Assembly: GCA_036172245.1 (NCBI GenBank)
Contig: JAYWIR010000097.1
Coordinates: forward strand, 62,001-126,000
Direction of reading: 5' to 3'
Source of the DNA: Raillietiella orientalis
Taxonomy: Eukaryota
DNA length: 64,000 nucleotides
The translations under genes and the position numbers were made by a program. The notes under the pieces were generated by a model. It was given only the letters and a program-made list of their open reading frames with translations, did no database searches and was not told where the DNA came from. Shown piece by piece: positions 6,105 through 43,560 of the stretch (its first letter is position 1; each line of letters starts with the position of its first letter).

Positions 6105-6987
6105 CGTGTGAAGGAAATTCCTGTGTATCCAAGTTTGTCAAGGGAACAGTTTTTCAATGAGCTTTGTTTGAAGCAACAGGCAGTAATGCGTAGTTCAGGT
6201 GAAATGGACTCTTGCAGCAAACTGTGGATTATTTAACAAAACGTGAAGCGGATATCAACCTCGAAGTTCTTGTTTGTAGTCGAGAAGTCTTGAACTGCCA
6301 GACACGGAATTCAAAGTTCAAGAATCCTCCTGCGAATTGCCTTGTGCGTTCAAATTGGGAGTATTATTATTTTTTCGTTCAGTGGGAATTGCTGTCGTTA
6401 TTCCAACTTACATCAGTGTTTCCCAGGATGGCAGCTGATGTTTAGGTGATTGGGTGTTCCAAGACATTCCACCTTCTAGCATAGGTGCTTCTGGGCATAT
6501 TGTGATGGGACAGATGCAAGTGACTGCATTAAAATGCAGCCTGTTCACACCCTCCAATGTGCAGCATTGATATTTGGGAGGAAACAAGCCTTGTGGAAAG
6601 ATCCCTTGGAAACCTAAATTGAAAAAAGGTTTTTGGTTTAAAGGAATGTCTTGGCATGTGACCGCATAATTACCTGGGGGTATTTTGTTTATTGGGGCTG
6701 CATGCAGCTCCAAATGGTGGTCTAGAGCCCTGTGTTGCCATCGATATGTTCTGGAACCATTTGTGCTATTCATAGTATGATGTTACAATGTTTATATCAG
6801 TAGAGATCTGTTGCCTGTTCAGCTATTCAGGTGATTTGCATGCTTTTAAGAACAGGATGTTCAGGTGTGTTTACTCCTAGGGTGTTACTCTCATCAGTCA
6901 AGGTTTGAAGATCTGAGAGCAACCACCTATAAATTCTACGCTTTCTCATCTCTAGATCATGCTACTAAACTAATGGGAAAGGGATAG
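6105..6987 (+). pseudogene. TYW5: Decayed TYW5-like JmjC tRNA wybutosine hydroxylase
   Basis: Hand translation across frames gives colinear blocks IPVYPSLSREQF, TVDYLTK, YYF/RSVG, FPRMAADV, FWAYCD, LFTPSNVQH*YLGGNK, PGGILFI, IDMFWNHL and YKFYA. These match recalled TYW5 blocks VPRLEGVSREQF, TVDYLSQ, YYLRSLG, FPLLKGDI, LWTHYD, LFSPRDAQYLYLKGTK, AGDVLFI, VNIFWKHL and YRDFYA. Several frameshifts and stops. Confidence 0.7.
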
Positions 6988-7000
6988 GGTTCTCTTAATT

Positions 7001-7539
7001 ATGCAGCTTGTATTATTGACATACTTCATGAGGTATTCATAGAGTGCTTTGCAGGAGTTCCCACCCTCAAGTAAAGTAACCGAGGTCATCCAAGGTCATG
7101 TGACAGATTTGATACTTGTTGAATATTCTAATCGCTTGCTTGTGATTGTTAGCCAGTTTGGTGCCATTGGTTCGTTCATTGAGGTCACCCACCAGTCTTG
7201 TCAGCAGGGTACCAGTGTGTATGAAGTCAGGTGTGTGTTTTGCACTGTGATGCAAATCCATCATGGTATTGCAGAGTGCTTTTTGGATTTGACAGTGATC
7301 ATTTACGAGCCTGCTGTCGCTTGTGGGCTGAAAAGCTTTCACCTGGCAAACCAGTGCTGTTTGCTGTGAGTGTTGCCCATCAGTTGACTACGGAATCCAT
7401 CACACGGATCCGCTCCTTACTGTTCAATGCCTACGTTTGGTCAACTAGTGATCGGTCCTCCAGGATCCGGGAAAACTTCCTATTGCCAGATAGCTTCACG
7501 TTTATTGAGGGCTCAGGACCGTCAAGTTGCTGTGATTAA
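7001..7539 (+). CDS. PSMG3: Proteasome assembly chaperone 3 (PAC3) with a 32-aa C-terminal extension; exons 7001-7009, 7055-7230, 7275-7539
   Basis: Spliced product [45 protein letters not shown]...VLFGFD...KPVLFAVSV...LLFNAYVW matches the PAC3 pattern (VVTQFGKMG, VLLGxD, VLLAVAV, terminal ..VW). GT-AG introns of 45 and 44 nt keep the frame. The 9-nt first exon is inferred. Confidence 0.8.
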
Positions 7540-8380
7540 TCTAGGTAAAGTATTTTGTAGAATTTGTTTTCGGAATTCGAATCTTTTCAGATCCAGCTAA
7601 TGACATTCTTCCATATGAACCTCAAATTAACATCAGTGAGCTGGTCACAGTTGAAGATGCCATGCATTCTCTAGGATTAGGTCCCAATGGTGCTCTTGTT
7701 TATTGCATGGAGCTACTAGCAACCAATATGAGCTGGCTGTGGAATCAACTAGTTCCCGTAGCTGATCACCACCTTATTTTTGACCTTCCAGGACAGGTAT
7801 TTCAGGCAATCTTGTGCTCAATTTTTATTTGTCCAAGGTTGAGTTGTTCACTCATCACAACTGCATCACCCAACTGATTGATTTCCTAACTGCTCGTGAT
7901 CTGCGGCTTTGTGCTGTGCATCTGACTGATGCTCATTATTGCAGTGATGCTTACAAATATGTGGGTGCTCTCTTGTCAGCATTGGCAGCTATGTTGAAAC
8001 TTAGCTTGCCTCACATTGGCATTCTATCAAAAGTCGATCTGGCCCAGAGATATGGACCATTACGTTTTCAATTGCCATTTTATACGGAAGTCCTTGATTT
8101 GGATTATCTATTTGAGGATGACAGCTCCATTCTGTCTCGAAAATTAGGGAAAGCCTTGGCTTCTGTTGTACAGCAGTATAGTCTAGTTAGCTTGCTCCCT
8201 ATGCAGATTGATGATCCATCTAGCGTGCAGAATGTGCTGCAAGCTGTAGATCGAGCCAATGGTTTTGCATTTGGTGCTGCACGTCCACAAAGAATCCATG
8301 ATATGCTAGCATGTGCATTAGGGGCTAGAGAAGACACACTTAATGAGGAAATCTTTGCTGATGACAACGAATCTCCTTAG
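7427..8380 (+). CDS. GPN2: GPN-loop GTPase 2; exons 7427-7544, 7591-7796, 7838-8380
   Basis: [20 protein letters not shown] (P-loop), [19 protein letters not shown] (GPN loop), [36 protein letters not shown] introns of 46 and 41 nt are in phase. Confidence 0.95.
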
Positions 8381-10850
8381 TGTCAACACAACTTGTTTGC
8401 ATCAAAAGAACGTCTTTGTAACATTTTGCCTGTTTCAAGGGCCTGTTTGTTTTAGAATCTTGATCTTGTTCATCTTAGAGTAACTTCAATGATGCAGGGA
8501 GATTTTGGCATGCCAGTCAACAGCTACAAGATTATGTAACCATTAGCATAACTATCAAATAGACTTTCACATTTGATGGAATCCAAGGAAAGAAACTCTT
8601 GATGCTTTCATGATTTTGCTATAATAATGCAGGACTCTTTGATTCGTGCATTCATGGGACTGTGATGTGGAATTGTAGAATTATTTTGGACCCAATCGTT
8701 TTTAGCTCTTTACTTAGTTTCCAATTTTTGTGTAATTTGTATGCCATTTGTAAATGATGCAATCATTTTGTGATATGTAGTGCTGATCATGAGTCATGCC
8801 CTTTTTATTGCCTTGTGATGCATCGTGTGTTTTCCTCTTCCTTTTGCACAGAATAATATTTGATTCACTAGTTTGTATTCAATTTATTCATTTACTCTGT
8901 TGAGATCTGAGAGCAGATGGGATCCCTTATTCTCAATTGGAACATTGAAAAATGGGAGAGAGCAATAAAGTGTTCAAGGAAAATGAGATGAATATGGAAA
9001 AGTGAAGTGGTCATAATAGCTTTGATGGCTTTGCTGAATCATCTGTGCCGAAAAATTGCATCATTGGACACCCAAAGAAAGAGGAATCTTCAAATGCATT
9101 AAATGTACACTAAAGTTTTGAGAAATGCAGCTTTTAACCGGTTACTAATTGGAAAACAGTGATTTGGAGTCCATTTGTGGCCAAAATTTGGTAACATGAT
9201 CACATTGGGGTGCAAAACGCAATGCCACATTCAGACAAATGTTTGCAGATGGTTAGATTCCAAGATCCATTTGTGATTGTATAGTTTTGTTTTCATACAA
9301 CATTCTACAGTTTTTTTTGCATTTAATAATTTAATTCGTTTACAACTAATAAGTGAAGTGTCGATGTGAACATAATTTAATTATTGTTCAGTACAAACAA
9401 CTCTTATTTGAAAAATTTGAAAATCATAAAGCATCGTCATCTAGAATTGGCAGGCATACAGCTATATTTTTGTTACTTTAGTTTAAATTTATCAAGGATG
9501 GAATAATCAAAGTTAATATTGCAACATACGTGGAGCCTGCAGTAGATTAAAATTTAATGATAAACTTCTAAAAACTGTCATGCCGAATCTTTAAATTATC
9601 AGTCATATAGTTAAGCTTTTTGTCCCTTTAGTATATTGGATAACTATGCTGTCAACTTTTAGTAGGTATTTTTTTATTGATGCATTTTTAGGTAAAATTA
9701 ATTTTAAGATCACTTGAGCAATTTGGAAGCAACATTAAGTGTGCAAACTTTTAAAATTTCAAACTGCGGCCAAAAACAAGTTGATATGACCAGAAATTCA
9801 AGGAAAGCTAACTACTGTTACATATTTCTTGCTATCTACTGTTACCTAATATCACATACGTAAATGTTGAGAAGCAACTTTCCTTAAATGCCATTCATTT
9901 GAAATGAGAGAAACAAAAACAGTGTCATGTTTGAGCAATTACTGTCAAGTGCCATTAATAACATGAGTGTACGCGTCATTGTCTGAAGAACCCATAAATT
10001 TTTACTTCATCATGCTTAACTTGCACTTAATCATGTGCAGTGATTTTTTCATGATTTTATAAAGGAATGATTTCTTGAGCGTGATTTTCTTTAAAATGGT
10101 TGCGCATTAATCGTGGAAATTCATGAGTGTGGGAACAGAACTCCATTATAACCATCTCCACAAATGCAATACTGAAATGAACAAATATAGAAAACCGTAA
10201 GGCAGTTGCTTATAAACAGTACTAAATAAGTATGGTGGGTTTGTAAGGAATTTTTAGAGTTGAGCCCATGAGCCCCAAAATTCAATAAACTTTGTTTCTT
10301 CGTGTAAGTGTACACAGTGTAATTTAAGTATTTGACTATTATCAGCATAAAATTAAAATCTGCCCTTGTTTTTTACTGCCAGGCCCCAAACAATAGGAAA
10401 CTTTTCTTTGTGATGCTTGGCTTACTGGTTCACCTGAGGACGATAAATTTAAAGCCCAATTGCTACCTTTATTAATCGATCACGGAAGCAAATGTAAAAT
10501 TCCCTGTTTATCCTTCTCAGCTATCCTTGCACCGACTGCACTGCAGACTTTCACAAGCAGCAGAAAATTTTCTGCGGAATTCAGATACGAAGAAAAGCAA
10601 GGAATTCATTTTCCCATTACACATACGGCACTCTGTGGATACTTTACACAAGTATATGTAGTTCACCGCCTGCAGGAACACAAAGTTCAATGAGATGTCA
10701 ATCCCGAACGACCACGCCCTTGAAATTTATGTGTTAATAGTCCCCTACTTGCGAATCGAAAGTTGGGCCTTTTCGTAGGCCGCGACGGGTGCGTGCCCGG
10801 CGCATGGTCCACTTCTTCATAACTATGCGTTTGGGCAACGATTTCGTTAA

Positions 10851-10932
10851 GGTAGCGTGGCCGAGCGGTCAAAGGCGCTAGCTTTAGGCGCTAGTCTCTT
10901 CGGAGGCGTGGGTTCGAATCCCACCGCTATCA
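10851..10932 (+). tRNA. tRNA-Leu (anticodon TAG)
   Basis: Acceptor stem GGTAGCG/CGCTATC plus discriminator A, D-arm TGGCCGAGCGG, anticodon stem CTAGC/GCTAG with loop TTTAGGC, long variable arm, T-loop GGTTCGAATCC, and a TTTT Pol III terminator a few nt downstream. Confidence 0.95.
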
Positions 10933-19824: not shown

Positions 19825-21285
19825 ATGCCACCCAAATTAAAGAAAACCGAAAAAAGGCTTCCAAAAACAACCAAGAAGAAGTCTAAAGAAGTGCCGCAAC
19901 TTGCAACTGTCGATGCAGTACCCATAACTGAGATGCCCAGGGAGTTGCTGGAATCCCATGTGATTCAACTAAGGAAAGAACTGGAAAGAGAACGTGAAGA
20001 AAGAAATTATTTTCAAGTGGAACGAGATAAGCTATTAAATTTTTGGGAAATAAGTCAAAAGCAATTAGAAGATGAAAAAGCAGCTTTACTGGCCAGTGAA
20101 AACAAATGCGAGGTACAAGAGGGATCCCACCAATCGGAGCTCGATGTTTATAAACAAAAAGTGAAACACATGATGTATGAGCATAAGATAGCATTAGGAG
20201 AGGCCCTTGGGGAGGCAAACAATCAGCTAGCTACACAGGAAGGCCAGTTTCACACTTTAGAAACAGAACTACATGATGCCATTGATGAAGCTGAATTACA
20301 AATAAGAGAAACTGTTCTACAACAACAAGATCATGTGCAACAACTGCAAAGAGATCATGCAAAGAAACTGCATGAAGTATATGAACAAGCAGAATTACAC
20401 GAATCAGAGTTACAGCAGCTATGGGAGGAACGGCTAAGAGAAACTACAGAGAGATTGGATCTGCAGCACCGGACGGAAATTCATCAACTGGAGGAGCGTA
20501 AAAATCAGCAATTACGCCAGCTGACTGAGAGCCACGACCACTCCTTCATGCAGATGAAGACCTATTATAATGACATTACAGCCAGCAATTTGGCTTTGAT
20601 TAGTTCACTGAAGGAGCAAAATGAAGCCTTGAAAAGCCACATTGATCGAATAGAGAAAGATCTCAAGTTCTTGCAGAAGGAGAATCGGCAGTTGCAAGAA
20701 CCACTGCAATTGGCACAGCAGCAAGTGGTTGAGTTACAACAAAGATTAATGAGTCATGAAAGGGACAAAACAGCACTACAGACTGCAAGGACACATCTCA
20801 AACAGCAAGCAGCAAAAATTCAACAACAAAAGTGGGAGAAAGAAGTCTTGTGTCAACACTTTCAACTATTAGAGCAAGAACGTGATAACATTTACAATAA
20901 ATTTCTCAATGCTATCAATAATATGCAGCAAAAAAGCAGCTTGAAAGCTATGCTAATTGAAAAGCAACTACAACAAGTACACCAGGATCTGGAAGTAAAA
21001 GAAATGCAGATGCAGGGAATCATAGACAACTCTCTGTCAGATCCAAGGCAGGATCAAGAAATTAAGAACAGATTAGAACAATTAATGGACAATAAAAACA
21101 TGGTCATCCAGGAACTGAGGCTGCAATTAGCTGAAGCTTGTAAAGCCCACAATGACTTGCTCCGTATATTTCAGGCTCAATTAAAAGCTCATAACATCCC
21201 CCAAGAAGATCTAGGTTTGAGACCATTGCACTTTGCAGAGGATCAACTGCTTGGTCAGAGTCCCATAAAACTTTCAATGCCCTGA
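19825..21285 (+). CDS. GAS8: Growth arrest-specific 8 / dynein regulatory complex subunit 4, single exon, 486 aa
   Basis: MPPK-basic N-terminus, ELEREREERNYFQVERDK, YKQKVKHMMYEH, EIHQLEERKN, MKTYYNDITASNLALISSLKE, ACKAHNDLL, DLGLRPL; coiled-coil composition. Confidence 0.95.
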   Translation: MPPKLKKTEKRLPKTTKKKSKEVPQLATVDAVPITEMPRELLESHVIQLRKELEREREERNYFQVERDKLLNFWEISQKQLEDEKAALLASENKCEVQEGSHQSELDVYKQKVKHMMYEHKIALGEALGEANNQLATQEGQFHTLETELHDAIDEAELQIRETVLQQQDHVQQLQRDHAKKLHEVYEQAELHESELQQLWEERLRETTERLDLQHRTEIHQLEERKNQQLRQLTESHDHSFMQMKTYYNDITASNLALISSLKEQNEALKSHIDRIEKDLKFLQKENRQLQEPLQLAQQQVVELQQRLMSHERDKTALQTARTHLKQQAAKIQQQKWEKEVLCQHFQLLEQERDNIYNKFLNAINNMQQKSSLKAMLIEKQLQQVHQDLEVKEMQMQGIIDNSLSDPRQDQEIKNRLEQLMDNKNMVIQELRLQLAEACKAHNDLLRIFQAQLKAHNIPQEDLGLRPLHFAEDQLLGQSPIKLSMP

Positions 21286-28084: not shown

Positions 28085-28729
28085 CCCTTTTCGGTGCGAA
28101 GCTCGTCGGATGGAGACGTTGCGTGTCGGCGGCACGCGAGTCGCCGACACGGAACGCTTTTTCGCGTGCCGCGTGCTCCATCGAGGTACCCATTGACTAC
28201 TTAAAGTTTAAGGTCACTGTTGTAATTGTTTATTTACACCACACTAAATAAAATAGTTCCGTTTTTCCCAAGCATGATTTTTTTTTACTTTTGTATGTAT
28301 ATTTGGCTATTTTATTACGTATAACGCTTTTCACATCTTCGGAATCAGATGACGATTATTCTCTCACTTTCATCGTCGTATTCTCCATTCGGATCCGACG
28401 CTTCCCCTTCTCCATCCACTGTCGTCTCTTGTAATAATCTCTTCAAAATTATCCGGCATTTTTAAGATATCACAAAGATAAAGTATAATAAATTATATAC
28501 GAAGAAAAACCGAGAATACTTAGCCGATATAAATGAGATTTTGTTTTCTTTCGTTGTTAAGGAAACTGTGAGAACGTGAGTGCATGCGTCCATCTCAAAC
28601 GTGGATCGTGTTGACGTATGTCGCGTGTACAAGGTACAAAAAACATTTGCCAAACGCATATGTGGGTCCACAGTCCACACAGATAATTTTCGTCGGACGC
28701 ATCTACGCGCGTCCACAGCACCCGAAGGG
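28085..28729 (-). mobile_element. Non-autonomous piggyBac element, copy 1 (right-hand TTAA absent)
   Basis: TTAA at 28081-28084, then CCCTTTTCGGTGCG...CAGCACCCGAAGGG; near-identical to copies 2 and 3; followed by CTTCG instead of TTAA. Confidence 0.88.
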
Positions 28730-31700
28730 CTTCGTACAGAATAGAAACTTCGTACTGTGAAAAGGTGCTGAAGAAAAAAGAGACGGTAGGGTAGGTGCTA
28801 AGCAAAGAACGGAGAGAAGGAGAATCGATCAACCGTCGAATTCAGTCCTGGCACGGTCGGGTGTTCTTTCTTCAGAATGTTTGCAAGATGTTCTCATACT
28901 GAACAAAGCCAACGTTCCAACTACGTGCCAGCTCGGGTTTCTCTCATCGCCATTTGCTTTCCGGGGAAGAAAAAGAAATCATTACAATCACGGAATCGTT
29001 CTCCACTGATCGATACGATGATTGTTTCCAGAGTTTCGGCGACCTAAATAGCAAAAAGTAGTAGAGGAGGAAGAAGGACCATCAAACTCTGCTGATTGTA
29101 GGTCCACAGAACAAAGGGAAGCTTCTCTTTCATGCACAGTCGGAACTTACACCCTTCACAAGTCGCTCTCAGACTGTTCCTACAAACGAACGAATTCAGA
29201 CAAAGCGGCACGAACGAAGGTGGTCTTTTCGAATTGAGAGGAGTGAAGATTTTGCTCTCCTCTTCCTCCGAAGAGCATCAGATGAATCGTAGGCGAAGCT
29301 CTCGTGGGTGCCTTGGTAAGCACATACAGGGTAAGACGAAGCACATACAAAGAGAAGCAAATTCCTTTTCGAATGGCACTATGCCTTCTCTTGATACGCA
29401 TTCCGCGACCCTGGATCTTTCCTATCTTTTGCACGTTGTGAGAAATGTGAGTTGCGTTTTGTTTCGGAGAAGAGTCAGGAAACCCTCAAGCACCCTCGCC
29501 TTTGTTTGAACGTGGGCATCGTCTGACTGTAGCTTCTCGGCTGTCTTGAGAAACCTAAGTTTCGTCTCAATGAGACGTAGTAGGACCTTTGGCAGAGCCA
29601 ACCCTTTGGCAGGATATAGAACCACAGAGTTTCTGGTCAGGAAGGACAGACAAAATCTCTGCCTGCCGCTCGATGGTGAGGCAATCGTGAAACCATCAGG
29701 TCTTCCTCTGAGAACCTCCGAGGGTCCTGCAAGAACGATTTTCGTCCCCGAATGGGAGCTGGAAGCGAAGAGGTGGCAACATCATGGGCGGGCCGTCACA
29801 CAAACGAGCCACGGCGACAGCGGTACTTCGAAGGATTGGCGAAGTGGTAAGTCCCGTTTGTGACACTTGACACAGGAACCGGAAAGCGCTCGCTAGCCCT
29901 ATGAAGCACTCGGCGGTTTCCCCCACCCCTTTGGTCGCTGTTGCTGCCACTGCCAACCATCTGGAACAAATGCGATAATCGCAGGCTCCGTCACGGACGC
30001 TCCTCGCATTCCAACCGATCGTTGGAAAGTCATAAAGAGCATTTTTACCTTTGGAATGATCTGCAATGTCCAGTCAGAAACTGAGGATATGACTGCAGCT
30101 TGGATCTATGATGAGCCAGTCATGAAAACGTTTGTATTTCCTGCAGATCCGATCGAACCATCCCTTCATGGAAGGAGCTTGGAGCATGGAAGACGGCAAC
30201 ATCTTGCAGTTTTCCCAGAAAAGAACCTCAAGATATCCTTAAGATTCTTCAACGAACGCAACCCGACTGAGAACGGCGACTCCCTGAGAAAGTCGCTCCC
30301 ATTTTTGTCTTTTTTTTTTATTGTTTGGAATCTGAGGGGTGGAGGGCAGGCAGTGCTCACGATTCTTGGAGCGTGCAATCCTGCCTCCCCTTTCGCAAAC
30401 CGGGGAAGCAGTACCCTGACTGAATGGGCGTTTTTTTTCTCCTTTTTGTTTCCTCATGCAACGCTCTCGACTCGAGGAAAAGGTAATGATTTCCAACGGA
30501 GGAGGAAGATGACGGATTCGGAAGCATCCCCCATCTCTGCACCTCCCAGCAGCACGTTTCCGTTCAGCTTGGGATGCAGGGAGGAAAGAGTGCCGGAAGC
30601 TCCCGCGAGGAGGCGGCGCGACGGGATTGACGCTGCAGGGGGGTCCCCTCGTCGCGTCGCGAACGAGGAACGCTGGACAGGAGAGGGAGGGAAGAAGCTG
30701 TTGTCCGGCGACGCGAGTGATGAACGAGCGATCAGCACCTTCGTTTTCTGGCTGTGGCTCGTTCGTGACTGCTGGCAGTATCCTCGATGCCACCCGCCAG
30801 AGCTACGCTCCCAGCAATCAGCATCTGCTGCGTCGCAGTCCGATCCTCTCACGTCGCATCTGCGTGACAGTTCCATGGCTGTTAATGGCCAAAAGTCACG
30901 AGTCAGCGATTTCTACGACCGCACTCCTCCGTAGTTCTTCTCCACCTTGCTCGGAGATTGCTCCCATGAAGGGAACGCAATCGCAGTGATTAAAAAGGGT
31001 CGTATCTTGCCTGGGACGAATACGGAAGCTCTCTCTTGTAGAGGTAGGGAAGAGGGAGACTTTCCCGGCTTTGGCAGGAGGTCGTCCGGAACTTCAGGCC
31101 TTTGTGCCAAATAGGTCATTCCAACGACCGTGTGCGTGCTCGCCCAGTTGGGGCGCATCTCTTCTCCAAGCGCGCGCCGTTCCCGTTGAAGTCACCGCTT
31201 CGAATCCAACTCGCAGCTGCCTTCTGATGAAGACGCCACCGCCACAAAAACCCCTCCTTCCCTGCAGCCATTTTTACGTCCACTCTTTAGCACGTCACTC
31301 TGCACGGCGGAGCGGTAGGTGGATGGGAGAGATCCCAGCCTTCTTCTATGGCCGGGACCGATGGCTGATGCTGCTGTACATCTTCGAAGCCTCTCGCCTT
31401 TCCCCGTGGAGCTCCCAGCGTCCCCGCAGATCGATTCCCAGATGCCACCTGCACAGACTAAAAGCTGGAATTGGATAGACACGGTCGGACCACCACACAG
31501 GCAAGCGACGAAGGCAGCAGCTTTCTGGAGGATTGCCAATGGCATCGAAGACGTTCGCACAGGGACGAGTCGCACCTCGGGACACACTTACGACCGGAGC
31601 TCGATGCTCTCCCGTCACACGGCTCCTGAAGCCACAGAGGAAGCTGCCCCTGGACCATCTCCACGACAGCGGATATCTCAAAGGGCGATATCTCTCCCTC

Positions 31701-34700
31701 TCTTCTCGTACCGTGTGCCTCCATCTTGTTGATGCTTGACACGGAGGAGCAAAGGATTCGTCCGTCCTCGTCTGTGCACGCGCGCGCGCGTGGACGCCAT
31801 CCTTCAGAACCACATGGACGGAGCTCGGCCACGGCACGGAGGCACGCGAAATCCGCGCATGCACCAAACAGCGAATTCGCCCCGAGGGAGCGACCACGGC
31901 GATATGGGATTTCTCCGCACTTTCGCCAGGATCGCCTCGAAGGGTTCCTTCTCGATGCGAGCGTTCGCCCCTTTCCAGCGCCTTCCCGCGCTAGAAGCGG
32001 CATTCGCATCCCAAGGGAGCGCCCCCTTTCGCTCCCTCCTCCCCCCGTTAAAAGGACCCTCTCTCTCGGGTTCGCCTCTGGCTGCCTCGTGCTCGTGCGG
32101 AAGGTTGCTTCACCCGCTCTTCGACAAGTGGCGCCTCTCCCGGCAACTCTTCGAAGTCGAAACGGGCGTCGGAGGTGTCGTTCTTCGGGGGGGACCGGTG
32201 TCGCCCTCCCCCCTTCCCTTGAAGCCCGTGGAGGGAGGAGCGCGCGCGCAGAAGGGGGAAGGGAGGGACAATGCTCTGGAAGCAGCAGGCTGGGCAGCTG
32301 ACTTTCCTGACCTCACAGGCACCGGCACCCCTTTCACTCCCCAGCCTGCTCTCCCCTAGGTTTCACCCCCTCCCGAAAGTCGCGCGTTCCCAGCAAGGCC
32401 CGCCTCTCCCGGGAGAGGCGCGGGAGGGAGGTGGCGTTTTGATAGGTGGGCGGCGGCGCCTCCTGGATCCACGCGCCCCACCGGTGGGACGTCAGTTTTC
32501 CTTTCGCACGGGTCTGATCCTGGGAGGAGGGGACGCGCATCCCGAAGGTCCGTTGTCTCGTCCCTTTGGAACCACGTCTCCCTAACGCCCGGAGCAAGCC
32601 TCCCCTTCCTGGTCCGCAGCTCACTCGCTGCCACGTCCTGGACGATGGCTCCTCGTGCCTGCGGGAGATTCTGTCGGGAGTGAGTCGCGAGGATGCACGG
32701 CGGCGCTGCCCCTCGCCGTCCTCCGGAAGGAGCCGCCGCGCCTCGCGAATCTCGGCAGGATTCTCTCCACCGGAGGCAGGAAGACGGTCCCCTCGCTTCA
32801 AGAACGAGTCCGCTTCCTCCTTTCTCCCCCCCCCCTTCCCTCCCCCTCTGCGGCTTCCCCGGGACGGGTTCAAACCTGCCAATCAGAACGCAGGAATCGT
32901 CACGCAACGGGAAACCGCTGGGCCAATAGGAACGCGCGTTGCGCGGAAGAACAGCAGTTGCTTCCCGCTGAGGAGGGACCGGATGGGGAAGTGAGTGCTG
33001 GATGGTGTAGACAATGGCTGCGGACCGAGATCGAGAACGGAAGCGCCAACAGCTGCCGCTATGGGGCTGGCGCGCCGGCCCGGGCCTCTCTTTTTCCTAG
33101 CAGGGAAGGGACGGGGAGGTAAGGGCACCCTAGGGGTGCATCCCTAGGCGGGCCTCACGGCATCCAGGGACCGTTGGCGCCTCCCCCTGCGTCGGAGCAG
33201 GAGCGGAGGAGGAACGCCGCCACGCTGTGGTTTGGTCTGGCGTTCGTCCCGCAAGGCGGGCATCGGGCGTTTCTGGAATAGGAAACCGGGGTATCCCTAA
33301 AGTCACCCGGTTGCGAGGAGTAGGGGACGGACCTCTCGGGGGCGGACCTGATGGGGCAATCAGAGACCCCTTCTTCACGCCCTCGTGAGCAGCCTCCTGC
33401 GTGCCGCGCTCTTCCCCCCACTTCCTTTCTAATGGGAGGACTGCCTTGAGGAGCATGCCGGACGGTCAGACCAAACGGTGGGGGATGACCAGGGAGAGAG
33501 GCCGGACAAGAGTGGGGAATGGCAAGGGGATGCGCAACGCGAAAAGACCCCTCGTTCTCACCCACTGCATCACTAGCAACCCGGCCCCACTTCCCTTCCC
33601 GCCTGCTCCACCCCATTGTCCCTTCCACTCCCTCCCCTCCTCCCCCAGTCCGCCCCCGAGGCCTCCGATTCCCTGCCTCGATCAGCAGGGTGCCTTTCCA
33701 CCCTTTCTTCAAGTACAGTCAGCCCTAGGGACGAGAGGGCCGCCGTTCCAGAATGGCCTTGATCCTGTAGGTCCTTTTCCTTCTCTTCCCGCGGCTTCGA
33801 GTCCCATCCTGTCTTCCAGGAAGCAGGAGAACAGAGAAGGAAGTTGACCCGCGCCCGGATGGACCCACCTCCACTCACAGGCTGGGATTGTTCCCGCCTT
33901 CCTGTTCTCTCCCTTTCTCCCTCTTGGATCTTCCCGCGCTGGAGTGCTACTTCCTAGGGATCGTCTCCTGGATACGGGCTCACCCGCTTACTCCCGTTTC
34001 GACGGAGGTACGGGAAGAAGGCAGGGAGGAACCTTGAAGGAAGCAGGGGACGGAAGAGGGACGTCTAGGGGACAGGATGGGGGAGGGCGAAGCCCGGGAT
34101 CTGGGGAAGAATGGGTGCGAAGATGCGGGGAAAGACGAGTTCCGGAGACTGGAGAAGCTCAGGTCGGGAGCGCCGGGAGCTCTCGTGACGAATTCGGGGA
34201 ACGGGAGGTCCGCACTTCCTGAAAATCGGGATCCTCCGGCACCCTCATCCCTTGAGCGGACGCGTTCATCGGATGGGCGCCCTCGAAGGGAGCACTCCTA
34301 GAAGATTTTGTCCCCTTCCTTCACGGAGACGCGATCTGCCCCTTCCGGGGTTACGTCGGCGAGCGGGGATAGTCAAACTCGAGAGGGGAGCGGGGGTGGA
34401 TGGTAGCGGCTGACGGGGCCCAGGCTGCTGCTGGAACGGAGGGGCGGCGCGCACACGCTTGAGTGGGCCGGGAATCCCGCCCGCCGGAGGGATACGTCAG
34501 CGGCTTAGCGGGGGGACGGGGATTACCGAGACGCGATGTTAACGGATGAGAGGTTGGGGGGAGCGCGGACGGGACTCCCCGACCGCAAAGTGGGGAAGGG
34601 AAGGAGGGGAGAAGGAAGAGGGACACCGGCCGGCAGGGGACATCTCGGCATAGGAAAAGAGGGAGCTGGAGGTGTGCAGGGAACTCTCTTTCCTGAAAAG

Positions 34701-35104
34701 CGGCTTCCACTGCACCCCATACGTCCCTCTGCGTCCCTGAGGCACCCCTCCTCTCCTGAGGGAATAGCACGAGCCGGAGACGCGCGGCGAAGCGCCGCTG
34801 GAGCTTTTCCCAAAGGCGTCCCCACCCCTCGTGGCAATCGAGGGGAAGTGAAGGGAGGAGCGTCGACCCTGGGACGCCCCGAAGGGAGTACGGAGGGAAG
34901 AGGCGAAAAATCACGGAGCACTCCGGGAGCGGCGGAGGGCCGTTGCGAGGTTCCTTTTTCTCCGGGATCGGGAGGACGAGGAGGAGGAGCAGTTCCAAGT
35001 GGTTCCGAGGGACTCCGCCCTCTGCTGCTGCAGGCTTCCAGCGTCGCGAAGAAAGGGTCCTCGCGGACGCGGTGTTGGCTGTAAGGGTCGCGCCATTCGC
35101 TTAA

Positions 35105-35752
35105 CCCTTTTCGGTGCGGAGCTCGTCGGATGGAGACGTTGCGTGTCGGCGGCACGCGAGTCGCCGACACGGAACGCTTTTTGGAGTGCCGCGTGCTCCA
35201 TCGAGGTACCCATTGACTACTTAAAGTTTAAGGTCACTGTTGTAATTGTTTATTTACACCACACTAAATAAAATAGTTCCGTTTTTCCCAGACATGAATT
35301 TTTTTTTTTACTTTTGTATGTATATTTGGCTATTTTATTACGTATAACGCTTTTCACATCTTCGGAATCAGATGACGATTATTCTCTCACTTTCATCGTC
35401 GTATTCTCCATTCGGATCCGACTCTTCCCCTTCTCCATCCACTGTCGTCTCTTGTAATAATCTCTTCAAAATTATCCGGCATTTTTAAGATATCACAAAG
35501 ATAAAGTATAATAAATTATATACGAAGAAAAACCGAGAATACTTAGCCGATATAAATGAGATTTTGTTTTCTTTCGTTGTTAAGGAAACTGTGAGAACGT
35601 GAGTGCATGCGTCCATCTCAAACGTGGATCGTGTTGACGTATGTCGCGTGTACAAGGTACAAAAAACATTTGCCAAACGCATATGTGGGTCCACAGTCCA
35701 CGCAGATAATTTTCGTCGGACGCATCTACGCGCGTCCACAGCACCCGAAGGG
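35105..35752 (-). mobile_element. Non-autonomous piggyBac element, copy 2
   Basis: TTAA on both sides (35101-35104, 35753-35756), CCC...GGG termini, imperfect TIRs CCCTTTTCGGTGC / CCCTTCGGGTGC. Confidence 0.92.
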
Positions 35753-38700
35753 TTAAGAGTGATGACGCTACAGTTTCCATCTGAAGGGTGGGGAATTGTA
35801 GGACGGTCGGCTTCAGAAGTAGCTCTTGGGGGGCTTCCCTTTGCTCTGCCTTGTCATCTACATTAATCATGGATGCAGAGAGTCTCTCCCAGACTCCCTT
35901 CCCACTTGGAAAGAGGAGTCCCCAGTCCTCGGAACGACGACAGAAGGGACACACCCGCTTGCTCCCGAAGGAAAAATGTCTCCTGGAGGTCTGGGACATT
36001 TTTCCTCGCTGCTAACAGGAGAGAGAGCGGAGATCCTTCCGGGAACCGCCGCAGGGCGGGAGAGACCCCTTTCCAAAATTTTCGTGTCGACCAAGCAGAG
36101 TGTGAGTGAAGAGTGGGGGAGGAGGAACAGGGGGTGGATTTTGTCACTAGGGCAGGAACGGGGCGAACACTGGGCTCTGACATTCTGACAGCGATTTCGC
36201 TCCCTGTCAGAGATGAACGAAATCGCTGAGAGGGCGCGACGAGGACGCATCCCTGCAGGACCAGGAAGCCCAAGGGCTCTTCCGAAGGAAACGGGAGAAG
36301 GGTAGGCTCGAGCGCGGGAGCTCACCTGCCGTCCCGTTGCCGGAGCAACGCGGCTGAGAGACTAACTGAAGCGGCAGAGCGCCAAGATGCTCGTGGCGCC
36401 ACGAGGCGGAGAGAAGAGAAGGCGAAAAGGGTGGAGAGATCGGGAATGCGAGAGGCCATCCCCTGACGACGGAGTGGAAGGCGAGGAATGCTGCAGGGAA
36501 CTGCAGATGAAGGAAGGAAAGGAGTAGCGATCTAGAGAAGGAAATCCAGATCTGCGCTCAGGCACTGGTCGATGCCTTGGGGCATCGAGAAGAGGAGACG
36601 AGACAGTCCAGGGAGCCGGAAGTACATGCTAGAAGGAACGGTTACTGCCTCTCCAAATTTGGCATCATTATGGACAGCTTTCCTTGCGTTTATCAATGAA
36701 AGGGAGAAACGGATCCTACGGGGCAATTCCTCTTTTTCCTCGGCGGTCACAACCTCCGGTCATGTCGGTACCCATCCCTAAGGTGGCTGACAGCACGAAG
36801 GCCTCAGGATTCCCGATGCGGTCTTCTTGCAACGGGAACGGGACACGGGTAGTGGCACTCCTGCTTACTCTCCTTCCTCGTTCGTCGGCTCGTCCCTCTT
36901 CGTGATGATGAGCAACCGGTGCACTCTACCAGCTGCGCTTCCAGACCTGTCAGGTACTATTCAAATTGCACGTATCCACTGTACACTTTGAAACACATAA
37001 TCCTCAATGTGCAATCGATCTCCGATTCCCGTTGTAATTTTTCAATCATCATTACTTGATTTCTACTTCTAAATATGTGATTGGAATGCCTGTTCAGTGT
37101 GTGATTTCATGCATCACTTTCGGAGTGTGGTTTCGGGTCTGCTGTTTCTTGAAAAGCGCATCAAATATCCTGTGGAACCAGTCTTGTAGGGGGAGGTGAC
37201 TGAGGAGGTGGACTTGGAGCAGTGGATTCGCGTGGAGGCGATTGTAGCTGGTAGTCGCTTGCGTCCTTCGGAAGCCTCCCGTATTGCAGGAACGGAAAGA
37301 TCAGCTTGGAGCATCCCCCTCGGCTTCGGAGGAACCATCACCGTTTCCCTATCGATTCTCAGCGCGAAGTGTGGGATGGTCCGACCCGCCTTTCCCGCTA
37401 CTGAGCAGGGAAGAGAGAATCGCTAGGAGGAATCGCATGAGCTCCCAGGGAGACAACGTGGAAGAGGAAGAAAAGGAAGGTGAAAGAGTTAAAAAAGGGC
37501 AATGCCCAGCTTCCGTTGGGGTCGCACAGATAGCAGACTGATCCAGAGCGATAGGAGGAGGAGGGAGCGAAAAGGAAGAGGAGGAAAGAAAGAGGAGGAG
37601 GAGAAAGGAAGGAGAAAGACTATCTTGTCCATGACATGAACGGGAAACGGGTTGAATACGTCTTGGAGTGGTGAGGGATCTGTGGAGTGCGTAGGCACCG
37701 TCAGAGGGTATGAGAGGAACGGGAGGGTGCCTCGTTAAAGCGGCACCCACGCCTATTGACAGGCATCGAGAGGGGATGGACGGATTTCAGTGGCTCCGCA
37801 GCGGGTTTCGGAACCTTCCGATTACGATCCCGCGGCCTCTGGACCGGATCAGAGAGGCAGACCGCATTCCCCCAGAGGATTAGCGGATCAGTGACGTGTC
37901 GTCCTCTCGCGCGCGGGACAACGCTCGACTCCGGGCACGCCAGGATGAGCAAGCTTCTTCCCTCGTGCTCCTTTCCTAGAGAGTTCCCCTCGGGAGACGG
38001 GGCAAGCCCTTCCAGGGCGGGGAGCCACGGAGGGGTCAGGGAAACCTCCCTTTGGTAAGCTGCACGCGAACCCGAACTTATGTGTGTGACTCCCGCGGCG
38101 CTTTCAGGAGCAGCAGACATCTTCCCGCACGCCTGCGGATCGCGTCTCGGAAGTTCCGGTGGCGAAGTCGGGGAGCGCGAAATCGGGAGGAGGACGAGGA
38201 ATTTGAGAGGAGTGGATGAGCTTTGGAGCCCAAGTCCTCCGTGACCCAGAGCCTCTCTCTCACCTGCCTCCTTGACCAGCTCGGCGTCGCCGCTGTCTTC
38301 TCAAAGGTGCGCGTTGCGCTTTCTAGGAACGAGTCCGTCCGGGGAGGATTCTGAAGTGACCAGAGGGACACCCGGCGCTCACGCTCATTCACATGCAGCT
38401 GCGGCGCCTCCACAGAGGGTAGAGACGGTGCTCCCCATCATGCCGCTCAGAAGCGAAAGTACTCTCCTAGGGATGCTTGCGGCTGGGACTAACAGGGATT
38501 CCGGAAGCGATGCGAATGAGTTTCCTTTCCCCCGTCGCGCTCCCTTCTCCCGCCGTTCCAGAGACACTGCGAACTCCGGGAAGGGGCCCTGGCAACCCTG
38601 TTCTCGCAGTTCCATGGACACACTCTCAGGGAATTGTTCGCTTGCTAACAGCCTTTTCCATGTCCTCCGGTCTTCAAGCTGACCTTCTTCCTCGGCGTCC

Positions 38701-41700
38701 TGCCTCGACTTTCCTCCTGGAGCGCCAAACAATGGAATTCAGGAAGGTGCATGGTTTTTCTGCGAGACGCCTTCCTAAAGTCCCGGCGAGACGGACGGAG
38801 ATTTCGGTTCTTCTAGTCACGAGGAGGCAGTTGTCAGGAGAAACGGAGGAGAAGGGAGTCTCAGAAGGAAGGACGCGTGCCATCACGCTGTTGCGTGCGG
38901 CGTGTCCTCCAGAAAGTCGATCCCGGAAGCGGATCAGGATTTGGACAGCTCCCCCCCGACATACAGTAGTCAGAGACTGTGTCCCCTCAGAGAGGCAGTT
39001 GTTATGGCTGCGACCCCATGGAAGGCAAGGCGACCCACATCCCAAGATGGAAGCGCGCTTACCACAGGCGGAGGCGGTTGACGGCCGTGCCCGCCTCATA
39101 TGGGAAGACGGGGGAACCCGGCGATGGGATGCTGTTTTCAGGGGCTTCAACTGCAGCTTCCGGAGGAAGTTGGGAGTCCAGAGAGAGTCTGCGGATGAGG
39201 AAGAGCCAGAGGCGAATGCAGTGAGGGCGGCGGTTGCCCGTGCGGCGTTGGCGAGGCTGCATGGAACAGGAACACCTAGTCGCCCGCAGAGAGAGCGGGC
39301 GCCAAGGGGAAGACCACCGTCGCCCCTTCCCCTTTCTCCCCTCCTTGCACATCGCCGCAAGCAGGAATTCTCTTCCTTTCCCACTCCCCTCCCCTCCCTG
39401 GAACAGGAGAGCGGGAAGCGAAGCGCCTCGACGACCCGCTTAAGGGTAAGAGGAGCCCCGTGAACGGAAGCATCCGGGAAGAAGCGGCGGGGCACGGATG
39501 AGGAAGCTGCACTCGGGTCTCTTACTACCCCGGAAGCAAAACTCCCTAAGCAGTTGCTGGGAGGAGCACCTCCTCTCCCGAAATGGTGAGCGACTGCTCA
39601 CCTAGCAACGCGCGCGAAGCGGGGAAACCCCTCGCCATTTTGGCCAGGGAGTTCGCTCCAGGAAGAGGAGGGTGGAAGACACGGATGCCTGCACGAGGGG
39701 GAGGGTGGTTTTCGGAGGCTGGCGTGGGGGGAGGACTGGTCGATCCGCACACACGCGCCACTCGTCGTCCCCTCCACCAGGGGCAGCTCTGCCAACGCTC
39801 TTCCACTCCCGTCTTCCGATCTGAGCAGTGGGGATCTCGTGCGGCGGAGTCCTGGAGTGACCCCGGCAGGACTGGTGGAGGCGGCGCGCTGTTCGACCCT
39901 TCGCGCTTCTTCCCAGCTTCAGGGGATCGGCTTGTTCCCCGGGAGCGCGCAAGGGACCTCGCTCCCCCGTGCCGGGAGGTGCTGCAGTTCCGAACCGCCT
40001 CGCTCCCTACGTCGGCCGGTGGCGGGCGCGGAAGGTGCAGCAAGGGGAAAACGAAAGGAAGGACTGGCCGAGGAACCAGGATGGATCTGGCCACCCCATT
40101 CAGAATAGGGACTAGAAATTTCAGAATAGGTCGCAGCATGAGTTGGTCAGGGCGGGAACAAAACGGGAGGGACGGGGAAGGACTTTGGAACTCCAGAAGG
40201 GGATGCAACCAACCCGCTCTCCGGGAGGAAGCACCGAAACTGGCGGATGAGTCTGTACGTCGGCCGGCTCTGGCAGCCGGATGCGGACCGATCCCTTGAC
40301 GGAGGTGATGTCGCAACGTGCCTTTGTCCCCGCCGTTCCTCCTGCCACCCTTTTCCAGGGCAGGCGGAAGGGAGAGTGCGGCGAAACATCTCTCCTTCGC
40401 CTCCCCCCCGCTTCCCATCGCCTCTCTCAGACGGTCTCGGCCGTTGCGGTGGCAACGCACCTCGCGAGCGCCCAAAGAGGGAGAGCGGGGGGGGAAGGGG
40501 GCGCGACCCCTCCCTTCGGACGCTTGGGATGCGCCGCTAATTGGCCGCTGCACCCCGGCTGCATCAGAGCACACAATGGGTGCTGCGCGAGCGGCGGTGC
40601 CCGGATAATGGGCCCGGGGGCAAGCCCGGAGCGCCATTATCGGAGGTCACAATATTGACAGAGCCGCTCATCGCGCACCGGACGGCGGCGCAGATGTCGC
40701 GGCGCGGGGTATCTGCGCCCCTAATCGGAGGCGACAATGTCGGCCCCTTCTGGAGTGATCCCTTTCAATGGGTCCTGCTTTCCTCTCCTGCAGCGCGAAG
40801 TGTTAATCGGGATCGTTCGCGCCATTGTTCCCCTCTCGCCGCCAACCATCCGTTGACCCTCCCGGAGAACATCCTCGACGAGGCGGATTACAGGGGAGTG
40901 ACACGGAGGCTTATCCCACTTTCGCTTTCATCGGTCCCACGGGGAGGAGGGGGGAAGAAAAAATCTCCCCCGGCCTCCGACTCCGCCTATCGGGAATCTC
41001 ATTGTCGTGTCCGGCCGGGAGCACCAGATTACCCCCGTCTCCGGGAATTCTCTCCGCGCTCCCCGCTCGCTGAGAGACTCCCGGATCGGGAAGGCCCGGC
41101 GCACAAAGTGGTGCTCCGCGTCTCCGCGGAGCGGGTATTTTTCTCATTTCCTCCCCCTTTTTTTTCAAGGGGGGAGGAGGAAGGGAAGGGGGAGAAGGTG
41201 GAAGAAAAGGAAAAAAAATCGGGGGCGCCCGCGGTGGTGGCTGAGAGGCGCGGTGGAGCGTGCGGAAGGGGAGGCGGTCCCCTATCTCCAACAGCGCTCC
41301 CGGGAATTCCTGCCCTTCGCGGGAGCGCTCCTTGCTCGAAGCCGGGAAAAAGGACGGAACCACCTTCCGTGGGTAGGGAGGAGGAGGGACGCGCGAGAGA
41401 GAAGGAACCTGCGAAAACAACGGCGCGCGTGCCATGGAGTAGGGACGTAAAGGGGGGAGGAAAGGGAGAGGACAAATTTCCTTCTCTTCCCTCCTTCCTT
41501 TTCCTCGCTCCTCTCCCGAACAGTAGCTTCGCAGGTTAAAGGGGAACGCGGCCAGCAATTACAGCAGCGCTCGCAGGCTCATTCCCGTAGTCGAGGGAAC
41601 TCAGGAATGGAGGCAGTCACCCCTCTTCGGAAACGCTCCCCTGAAGGAGTTAGACTTCCTCTTCGACCTCCCGTTCCTCTTCGGAGGGGAAGAGCATCCT

Positions 41701-43270
41701 CCAAGAGACGGGACACTGACGAGGACTTCCTTGTTGGAAACCCTCCTAAACAATAGAAAAGCAGGAAGGGAAGAGGAGGACGAGGAAGGGACGAGGAGGG
41801 AGAAGGGAAAAGAAGGAAAAGAGAGGAGGAAGAAAAGAGGCGGATGAAGAAAAGAAGATGAAGGATGAAGAGGAGAAGGAGTAGGATGGTGGAAGAGGAG
41901 GAAGGAGAGAAGGAGAGGGGAACCGACCGCTTCCTTCGGCTGCTCCTCCCCCTTCACGTGTCTTTCCCTCTCTCCGAGAGGAGGGGATGCGAGCGATGTG
42001 GCCCGCGTGGGCCTGCAAACGAGGTGGGAGAGACCCTAGCCACGCTCCCTACGTTCTTGGGGCCTTGGCTCCAGACGGCGATGCCCGGAGGGCTTCTGGA
42101 TCCCTCGAGGGCCACGCAATGCGGCGGGAAAGGTCTCCCGCTGGACCCGTCCCTCATTCTCTGGGACGGGCCGAAGCGGCAGAGGGCAGCGGGGTCCTCG
42201 GAGACAGGGATCGGGAGAGGATACTGAGCCACTCCGCAGCTTCCTCCGTGCCCTCCCCGTCCTCCGGAGGCAGACGCGGGCAGCGCAGGGATGAAGGAGC
42301 CGCTACCGTCTTGCCCGTGACCGGTCTCCGGGTGACCGGGGTCGTCGATGCGTCGAAATGCGAAGACCTGGTCGCGGGGTCCTCCTTTCCCTTTCCTGGA
42401 GCGTCCAGCCCTTCTTTTCGAGCCCCCGCTCAGCTGAAGGCGCCCTGGACATCCAGTCAGCCGCGTGTCCAGGATGCCCGCAGCCCCGAGCTCTGTGAAC
42501 GCCGGCAGCGGAAAGCGCTTGGAGGGGGGGCGTCCCTCACCTTGGTGGGCGGGCAGCTCAGGGAGTGGGTGAGGAGCGCCTGCCCGAGGCGTCTTCCCTG
42601 TCCGAGGTCCCGCGTCCTCCAGAAGCGGCCCCGGGCGCTTCCTGCGTCCCTCGCCGGTAGGAGGGGAGGTTCACGATGGGGGGGCGAGGAACCAGCCCTC
42701 TCCGGGGCCTTCCCGGAAACCCGCCGTCCTTCCGGCGAGCCTCCAACTAGAGTCCCCTTCCCTGTTTCCATAATGCCAGGGAGGAGCACGCGGAGTTGCG
42801 GCCTTCCCTCCGCGTTTAGGAAGGCGGGAGCCGCTCCCTAAAACCCCAAATTGTCTCCCTCCTCGGTAGTTGTGGGGAGGGCCTCCACCCCATCGCGAGT
42901 GCCGCTGCGGGCCCGAGCGCGCAGCGAGCTGCTCCCTGGCGACGGTCGCCAGCCGGCGCCCCTTACGAGTGGGCGCGTCCTTTTCCTCCTCTTCCTCCCT
43001 CCCGGCACCTCGGTCTCCTTCTCCAGGGCTGGAGGGAGAGAGGAGGGGTCCCTATGACGACGGACTCGTCTCCAGTGATCCAGGAGGTCCGTCTCTGAGC
43101 CACCTACGGGGGCCTAGCCCTTCCGGATGGGCAAAGGAAGGAAGAGAAGTCCCTCGGGACGAGTCCGTCGGTAGTCTTTATTGCAGCAGGCTGGAGGGGG
43201 TGTGGTTCTGAGCCCCCTAGGGGCCGGCAGGCGGTCAGACATAGAAGGCGCCGTCTGAGTGGTTCTGGTG

Positions 43271-43560
43271 GCGCTGCTGGTGGAGGAAACGTGGCCTTCG
43301 ATACCCTCAAAGGACGGCAGGCGGGCAGGCAGCGAGGTCAGCGTCGGGACAAGGCGGCGACATCTGGGTGTTACTGCTGGTGCTGTTGGTGGAGATGGTG
43401 ATAGTGGCGCGCTGCTGGTGGCGGGGGTGTGGCCTTTAACGATCCCAAAGGGCGGTAGGCGGGCGAGTGAGCGAGCAGGCAGGCAAGTCAGCGTCGGGAC
43501 AAGGCGGCGGAGCCATCTGGGTGTTGCTGCTGCTGCTGCTGCTGGTGGAGATGATGATGG
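43271..43560 (-). repeat. Diverged tandem duplication of the Fez C-terminal coding end plus proximal 3' flank
   Basis: gtcagcgtcgggacaaggcggcg...catctgggtgtt..tgctg...ggtggagatg occurs at ~43337 and ~43487 (150 nt apart), each preceded by gcgctgctggtgg...gtggcctt. Confidence 0.85.

Follow-up and report, generated by a model that had tools for sequence, protein, structure and literature searches.

To our knowledge, same-strand overlaps in which two conserved cellular genes are read out of frame are rare outside viruses, and such overlaps are natural tests of how eukaryotic ribosomes choose a start codon. In Drosophila, Wall and colleagues (2005) reportedly found few or no AUGs in the first cistron, a scarcity on which the second cistron is said to depend. 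Operons that are resolved by spliced leaders exist in tunicates and nematodes.

The catalogued animal examples considered here are those of FlyBase, for which the available text of Crosby et al. 2015 (PMC4528330) gives 159 annotated dicistronic pairs. For Drosophila melanogaster the same text describes 18 gene pairs – termed ‘multiphase’, e.g. att-ORFA/att-ORFB – that have common coding sequence in different frames, with 26 of their 36 genes on polycistronic transcripts. The shared stretch exceeds 63 nt in five of these pairs and reaches 553 nt at most (PMC4528330).

In green algae, conserved bicistronic mRNAs are translated by leaky scanning, with start codons under-represented before ORF 2, short spacers between the ORFs, and weak start contexts at ORF 1 (PMC11892635, in the part of the paper available); the word ‘overlap’ does not occur in that part. 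Spliced-leader trans-splicing in calanoid copepods, together with a CopepodSL consensus, is described by Yang et al. 2015 (PMC4664967), the accessible text of which mentions neither operons nor polycistronic RNA (0 occurrences of each).

Here, we analyze a 64-kb stretch of Raillietiella orientalis DNA (the window) in which a single strand carries PSMG3 (proteasome assembly chaperone 3) and, overlapping it, GPN2 (GPN-loop GTPase 2), such that 113 nt (7427-7539) code for both proteins in different frames. The explanation we favor, to which we assign a probability of about 0.5, is that an old head-to-tail transcription unit underwent a deletion that made the overlap, and that GPN2 is expressed through leaky scanning. 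As in the Drosophila multiphase pairs, there are two genes on one strand with common coding sequence in different frames, the Drosophila pairs being mostly on polycistronic transcripts according to the available text (PMC4528330). The window pair differs from these in its gene content (PSMG3-GPN2), in the position of the overlap over the P-loop of the downstream enzyme, and in belonging to a tandem conserved in 24 environmental loci, including copepods. The PSMG3-GPN2 pair is new, out-of-frame same-strand overlap as such being already catalogued in Drosophila, and the first-pass annotation, which called such an arrangement very unusual in animals, overstated its rarity given the 18 out-of-frame Drosophila pairs (available text of PMC4528330).

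The relatives of the window locus can be compared with the other two systems. Green-algal bicistrons, as presented in the accessible portion of PMC11892635, resemble them in having conserved ORF pairs on one mRNA, under-representation of ATG, and short spacers, and differ in being from another kingdom and in their weak ORF 1 context, which is not clear in PSMG3-GPN2. The likeness to spliced-leader operon systems lies in the presence of CopepodSL on three related contigs and in head-to-tail genes with very short spacers; unlike in operons that are resolved by spliced leaders, the leader is seen only on the first cistron, and the RNAs retain the later ORFs.

PSMG3 is modeled as three exons (7001-7009, 7055-7230 and 7275-7539, with introns of 45 and 44 nt) encoding 149 aa, and GPN2 likewise as three (7427-7544, 7591-7796 and 7838-8380, with introns of 46 and 41 nt) encoding 288 aa; the exons of both were joined by coordinate, and all four introns begin with GT and end with AG. 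The features of the locus are as follows.

6928..6933, + strand: TATAAA, candidate TATA box 73 nt 5′ of the PSMG3 ATG, the sole one on the strand in 6400-9400 by hexamer scan; function putative
7001..7009, + strand: PSMG3 exon 1 (M-Q-L), followed by a 45-nt GT..AG intron; start placed by frame and splice sites
7055..7230, + strand: PSMG3 exon 2, N-terminal half of PAC3, matching 2z5e and the custom HMM
7098..7103, + strand: ATG-TGA mini-ORF, one of two ATGs between the two starts in the spliced RNA
7221..7369, + strand: second intervening ATG, opening after splicing a 34-codon ORF whose end is 57 nt 5′ of the GPN2 ATG
7275..7425, + strand: PAC3-homologous part of PSMG3 exon 3, up to ...SLLF at residue 112 (HMM positions 84-132; colinear with protein P0048)
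7382..7383, + strand: AG nearest 5′ of the GPN2 ATG by AG scan, after a pyrimidine-rich stretch; candidate trans-splice acceptor
7426..7539, + strand: lineage-specific PSMG3 tail, 37 codons plus TAA, running across the GPN2 start and P-loop exon in the other frame
7427..7539, + strand: dual-coding overlap of 113 nt, by translation of the two frames
7427..7544, + strand: GPN2 exon 1, beginning MPTFGQ... and including the P-loop GPPGSGKT; positions 1-32 of the Pfam PF03029 profile
7591..7796, + strand: GPN2 exon 2, with the GPN motif inside, PF03029 profile positions 34-101 (E=1.5e-20)
7838..8380, + strand: GPN2 exon 3 and stop codon, PF03029 profile positions 102-238
8964..8969, + strand: AATAAA, candidate common poly(A) signal, the sole one on the strand in 6400-9400

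The ATG at 7427-7429 is the sole possible start for GPN2, as the frame is closed by a TGA at 7385-7387 and contains no other in-frame ATG; the same TGA excludes an upstream coding exon in the GPN2 frame. In the PSMG3 frame, the W codon at 7438-7440 is followed by TCA rather than by a stop, and the frame remains open for 32 codons beyond the W codon until the TAA at 7537-7539, which leaves 5 nt (7540-7544) before the GT of the GPN2 intron-1 donor at 7545. Translation bears out the coordinates and frames given in the first-pass annotation (the ATG at 7427, the W codon at 7438-7440, the 113-nt overlap and the 5 nt to the donor), and the gene models and profile matches agree with its proposal that two real genes on one strand have 113 nt in common in two frames. 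Judged from these models, the overlap is very probably real at the DNA level.

The assignment of GPN2 is straightforward. Its exons match Pfam PF03029 (ATP_bind_1) contiguously (positions 1-32, 34-101 and 102-238 of 240), both the P-loop and the GPN motif are present in the translation, and the nearest named relatives are GPN2 proteins, the best named matches in a database search being ‘GPN-loop GTPase 2’ with up to 50% identity. The N-terminus, M-x-x-F-G-Q ahead of the P-loop, is canonical, and the Q is present in 20 of the 21 homologues with a visible N-terminus.

PSMG3 was more difficult to assign. Exon 2 matches human PAC3 (2z5e) with E=1.6e-4, and on its own scores 13.4 bits (E=0.09) with Pfam PAC3 (PF10178), which is under the 21.2 cut-off; Pfam gives no score for exon 3 or the tail. 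Word-index protein searches using the last exon and exon 2 as queries gave no match, the PDB, queried with exon 3 including the tail and with the core of that exon, yielded one chance match or none, and the protein atlas contained no usable match to exon 2. A HMMER scan of 1.84 billion representatives returned five proteins at E<=1e-3, two of which (P0044 and P0048) pass Pfam PAC3, and the spliced window PSMG3 is colinear with P0048 through exon 3 (55.5 bits). A custom PAC3 HMM was constructed from 17 relatives – 15 environmental ORFs, P0044 and P0048 – and all ten of the profile relatives checked pass Pfam PAC3. With this HMM the spliced PSMG3 has a PAC3-domain match over its whole length (81.1 bits, positions 23-132 of 136); the score is 23.5 bits for exon 3 by itself and -3.5 for the tail. 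Among 9081 six-frame pieces searched, the sole matches to the custom HMM that lie in the window are the two PSMG3 exon pieces (E=1.3e-13 and 4.4e-6).

Several other features were noted in the window. A single tRNA-Leu gene (anticodon TAG, 82 nt) is located 2.5 kb 3′ of GPN2 at 10851-10932 (+), and an intronless ORF of 485 codons at 19828-21282 (+) has a Pfam GAS match of 172 bits (GAS8 / dynein regulatory complex subunit 4), its nearest atlas clusters being mostly arthropod. A GC-rich island spans 30000-49000 (55-70% GC versus 32-47% around it), and within it is a C2H2 zinc-finger ORF of 532 codons at 43488-45086 (-) with C-terminal His and Gln runs. The same ORF tail of ~85 residues occurs twice, at 28462-28797 (-) and 35485-35853 (-), and therefore represents a repeated element with one copy next to the GC-rich island (~28.5 kb) and another inside it (~35.5 kb).

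By the HMM, PAC3 homology in the window ends at residue 112, nucleotide 7425, leaving a single base ahead of the GPN2 ATG. A further 37 residues follow the aligned part in the window protein, compared to 0-10 in the 24 environmental loci, and the C-terminus lies 33 residues beyond the profile end, compared to -1 to +4 in 17 relatives. Thus, against the family pattern of a small PAC3 protein ending near the domain end, the C-terminus is aberrant, while the core is that of a family member; no Pfam or HMM similarity was detected for the tail. The first-pass annotation took PAC3 proteins to end in ‘...VW’ and counted 32 extra residues. There are indeed 32 codons past the W codon, but with homology ending at 7425 the new tail is 37 residues long, and the 17 relatives end in varied residues at -1 to +4 from the profile end. 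The DNA from 7427 onwards aligns with the GPN2 start regions of two environmental loci, L065 and L035 (ATG-CCT-AC..TTTGG...), so that the codons for N-A-Y-V-W are read from GPN2-derived DNA, and the likeness to a ‘...VW’ end is, by this alignment, coincidental. Taken together, the end of homology at 7425, the alignment of the ATG region to the L065 and L035 GPN2 starts, and the outlying tail point to deletion as the most likely origin of the overlap.

The sequence that PSMG3 reads beyond this point is constrained by GPN2. When GPN2 exon 1 was recoded synonymously, none of 20,000 recodings placed a PSMG3-frame stop in the first 6 codons (residues MPTFGQL), and a PSMG3-frame open run at least as long as that observed was present in 18-41% of recodings. 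The tail length is thus what is expected by chance, and because the conserved GPN2 N-terminus forbids an early PSMG3-frame stop, the tail would be a by-product and not a selected domain. It had been claimed that a stop directly after the W codon would alter the GPN2 Gln, to Glu or Lys; the recodings and the presence of Q in 20 of 21 homologues uphold the constraint, but the replacements listed were incomplete, as a TAG at 7441-7443 gives Arg. Two other ways of ending PSMG3 were considered and rejected: a donor near 7435-7441 would have a poor GT consensus, with none before the GPN2 ATG that has PAC3 homology to rescue, and a stop made by polyadenylation after 7441 has no poly(A) signal near it.

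The outlying tail, at +33 past the profile end versus -1 to +4 in 17 relatives, is also what lends some weight to the possibility that the extension is not made at all, either because this PSMG3 copy is decaying and an intact copy is elsewhere, or because of a one-base assembly error near 7420-7428. The third frame does stop, at a TAG at 7446-7448, which in the error variant gives a PAC3 of normal length with a GPN2 overlap that is still 22 nt. However, the three PSMG3 exons are intact and bounded by canonical splice sites, the protein scores 81 bits with the family profile, there is no long homopolymer near 7420-7428, and no second PAC3-like piece was found in the 64-kb window. Even given a one-base error, the GPN2 ATG stays inside PSMG3. 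We consider loss of the extension by either route to be very unlikely, and overlap made by deletion remains the reading that we carry forward.

Synteny in related species had been proposed as a check on the arrangement, and the tandem is found there. Metagenome contigs were scanned with a GPN2 alignment; 348 stretches matched, of which 161 encode relatives, and the best 80 of the 161 were kept. In 24 of these best 80 GPN2 loci a profile search finds a PAC3 ORF immediately 5′ of GPN2 and in the same orientation (tblastn alone finds the upstream PAC3 ORF in 15 loci at E<=1e-3), and each of the eight environmental PAC3 ORFs sent to Pfam scores above the cut-off. These relatives are distant, with identities of 33-59% for GPN2 over the best matching segment and 24-34% for PSMG3. 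None of the 24 pairs overlaps: the GPN2 ATG follows the PSMG3 stop at +1 to +225 nt in every one, compared to -113 in the window.

In the 14 tblastn loci with one unbroken GPN2 match, GPN2 is intronless and the contigs are cDNA-like. L053 is genomic, with GPN2 split at the same residues as in the window (39/40 and about 145/148) and PSMG3 sharing the split Arg codon; the L065 and L046 matches are likewise split into exons. The 5′ ends of L012, L026, and L027 correspond to the CopepodSL consensus over its last 30-32 nt (Table 1 in the accessible text of PMC4664967), and these three are therefore trans-spliced calanoid copepod RNAs carrying PSMG3 and GPN2, with the caveat that, the contigs being assemblies, the form represented could be a dicistronic or precursor RNA that is in the minority. 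The tandem of PSMG3 and GPN2 is conserved and is present on single RNAs in copepods; no paper tying PSMG3 to GPN2 was found in the literature searched.

A further open reading frame, ORF1, is positioned ahead of PSMG3 in seven cDNA-like contigs (L003, L013, L021, L022, L026, L027 and L031), two of which, L026 and L027, bear the copepod leader. It is a Pfam Peptidase_S26 member (mitochondrial IMP-type signal peptidase) in both of the two tested. The spacing between ORF1 and PSMG3 varies from a 1-nt overlap to 106 nt, with L013 and L031 sharing one base (TGATG), and ORF1 contains few ATGs in several contigs (a single one over ~500 nt in L003, L022 and L027), while that of L031 has eight. A tblastn comparison of the S26-peptidase ORF with the window gave no copy (best E=0.18), and the three-gene form is thus absent from the 64 kb.

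The PSMG3-GPN2 spacers are A-rich in ten contigs (L003, L004, L012, L013, L024, L026, L027, L030, L031 and L035), and in these the word AGTGA recurs near the GPN2 ATG, four times in L012; it could be an acceptor-like site (YAG followed by TGA) or an intercistronic element. In L012, L021, L035 and L053, an AATAAA or ATTAAA is located right after or overlapping the PSMG3 stop, and in these species PSMG3 may also be monocistronic, with its RNA ending 20-40 nt before the GPN2 ATG.

The relatives are strongly depleted for ATG in the upstream cistron. When clustered at >= 60% identity with one representative taken for each, the eight representatives contain 13 ATGs between the PSMG3 start and the GPN2 start, compared to 51.8 expected from a first-order Markov model (P=1.4e-10); in the control, GPN2 of the same representatives, there are 166 compared to 164.1 expected. 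Internal Met residues account for 2 of 1124 residues in PSMG3 and 87 of 2476 in GPN2 of these eight. Among 15 full contigs, the interval between the starts has 27 ATGs versus 51.6 expected by codon shuffle, and ATG density is 0.38 per 100 nt there versus 2.34 in GPN2. Depletion of this kind in the upstream cistron is a signature of leaky scanning to the downstream one. The window PSMG3 lacks internal Met, and the two ATGs in 334 nt compare with 3.2 expected by codon shuffle, which is consistent with the pattern of the relatives but is a difference that is not significant alone (P=0.34).

The base at -3 in the window is A at the PSMG3 AUG and T at the GPN2 AUG, the weak GPN2 context being forced by PSMG3 codons, and this is the opposite of the ideal layout for leaky scanning, in which ORF 1 has a weak context and ORF 2 a strong one. 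In the 15 relatives a purine is present at -3 in 14 PSMG3 starts and in all 15 GPN2 starts, and A in 3 and 9, respectively, with no clear contrast between the two.

No AATAAA or ATTAAA was found by hexamer scan between 7001 and 8964, and neither a canonical poly(A) signal nor a promoter element is present between the cistrons when represented by the hexamers AATAAA, ATTAAA, and TATAAA. A scan for promoters and terminators of the bacterial type was set aside as irrelevant, the species being a eukaryote. From the arrangement of these signals and the tandem in relatives, PSMG3 and GPN2 are likely to be co-transcribed in Raillietiella orientalis. One alternative is that there are two separate, overlapping transcription units, with a GPN2 promoter inside PSMG3 and a PSMG3 RNA that continues through the GPN2 start until a poly(A) site that is distal or non-canonical. 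Separate units are the default in compact genomes, and monocistronic alternatives are common enough among the FlyBase dicistronic loci, being given for both genes in 45 of 159 and for one gene in 69 (accessible text of PMC4528330); the weak -3 base of the GPN2 AUG would also matter less on a short private leader. Nonetheless, there is no TATAAA inside PSMG3, the TATA box being the only promoter type scanned, and the relatives carry both ORFs on one RNA with the upstream ORF depleted for ATG, such that we regard separate units as quite improbable.

A second alternative accepts co-transcription and proposes that the unit is a spliced-leader operon, with a GPN2 leader trans-spliced to an acceptor in PSMG3 exon 3, and with any one precursor yielding a GPN2 RNA or a complete PSMG3 RNA, never the two together. 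The nearest AG, at 7382-7383, is 43 nt before the GPN2 ATG; it follows a pyrimidine-rich stretch, and there is no further AG up to the ATG. The relatives offer parallels, as the calanoid copepod leader is at the 5′ end of three related contigs, an acceptor-like YAG lies 2-3 nt ahead of several PSMG3 starts, and AGTGA words are found in the GPN2-side spacers. However, in none of the 80 loci is the leader joined to GPN2, and it is present only ahead of the first cistron of a contig; the window has no leader-like sequence, and use of the acceptor at 7383 would destroy the PSMG3 message. The depletion of upstream ATGs would also be needless if trans-splicing resolved the cistrons efficiently. Resolution of the window locus in this manner is therefore unlikely, although the leader-bearing relatives can trans-splice, so GPN2 might also acquire a leader of its own there.

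We thus return to an old transcription unit, a deletion, and leaky scanning. PSMG3 and GPN2 would constitute a single, old head-to-tail transcription unit, the form of which would be that of the relatives, in which both ORFs are on one RNA, 1-225 nt apart, and few ATG triplets are left in the upstream cistron. One deletion would have removed the last ~4 PSMG3 codons, the stop codon, and the whole spacer, leaving PSMG3 one base from the GPN2 ATG. Ribosomes initiating at 7001 would then cross the GPN2 P-loop exon in their own frame, add the 37-residue tail and stop at 7537-7539, while 40S subunits that skip the PSMG3 AUG would scan on to the GPN2 AUG, and ribosomes initiating at 7427 would make normal GPN2. 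The deletion would have been tolerated because the downstream gene is independent of upstream termination.

The first-pass annotation raised the possibility of translational coupling, which is a poor fit: the PSMG3 stop lies ~110 nt beyond the GPN2 start, and the scarcity of ATGs in the upstream cistron of the relatives favors leaky scanning. Coupling by termination and reinitiation in particular was rejected on account of this ~110-nt distance. Several observations count against leaky scanning, namely that ATG paucity in the window has P=0.34, that T is at -3 of the GPN2 AUG, and that the contexts of the relatives are not separated; and the poly(A) hexamers in the spacers of four relatives (L012, L021, L035 and L053) count against one shared RNA. 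Weighing these sequence features, we put translation of GPN2 from the common RNA by leaky scanning at close to, or just below, an even chance.

The comparative series, with 24 non-overlapping versions and one collapsed version, dates the overlap as derived, and would explain it by deletion. The ATG-purged PSMG3 on leader-bearing copepod RNAs suggests polycistronic translation in crustaceans; a literature search found no paper linking copepods with bicistronic or polycistronic translation. We propose, tentatively and with somewhat less than even confidence, that PSMG3 and GPN2 belong to an ancient messenger that is translated polycistronically, its upstream cistrons having been purged of AUGs so that leaky scanning supplies two or, with the S26 peptidase gene in front in several copepod-type contigs, three factors for assembly or processing. 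The RNA would be leader-bearing or capped, and leaky scanning would operate alongside spliced-leader trans-splicing. If this is true, then the window would show that the cistrons of such a messenger can collapse into a 113-nt overlap across a P-loop, with neither gene being lost.
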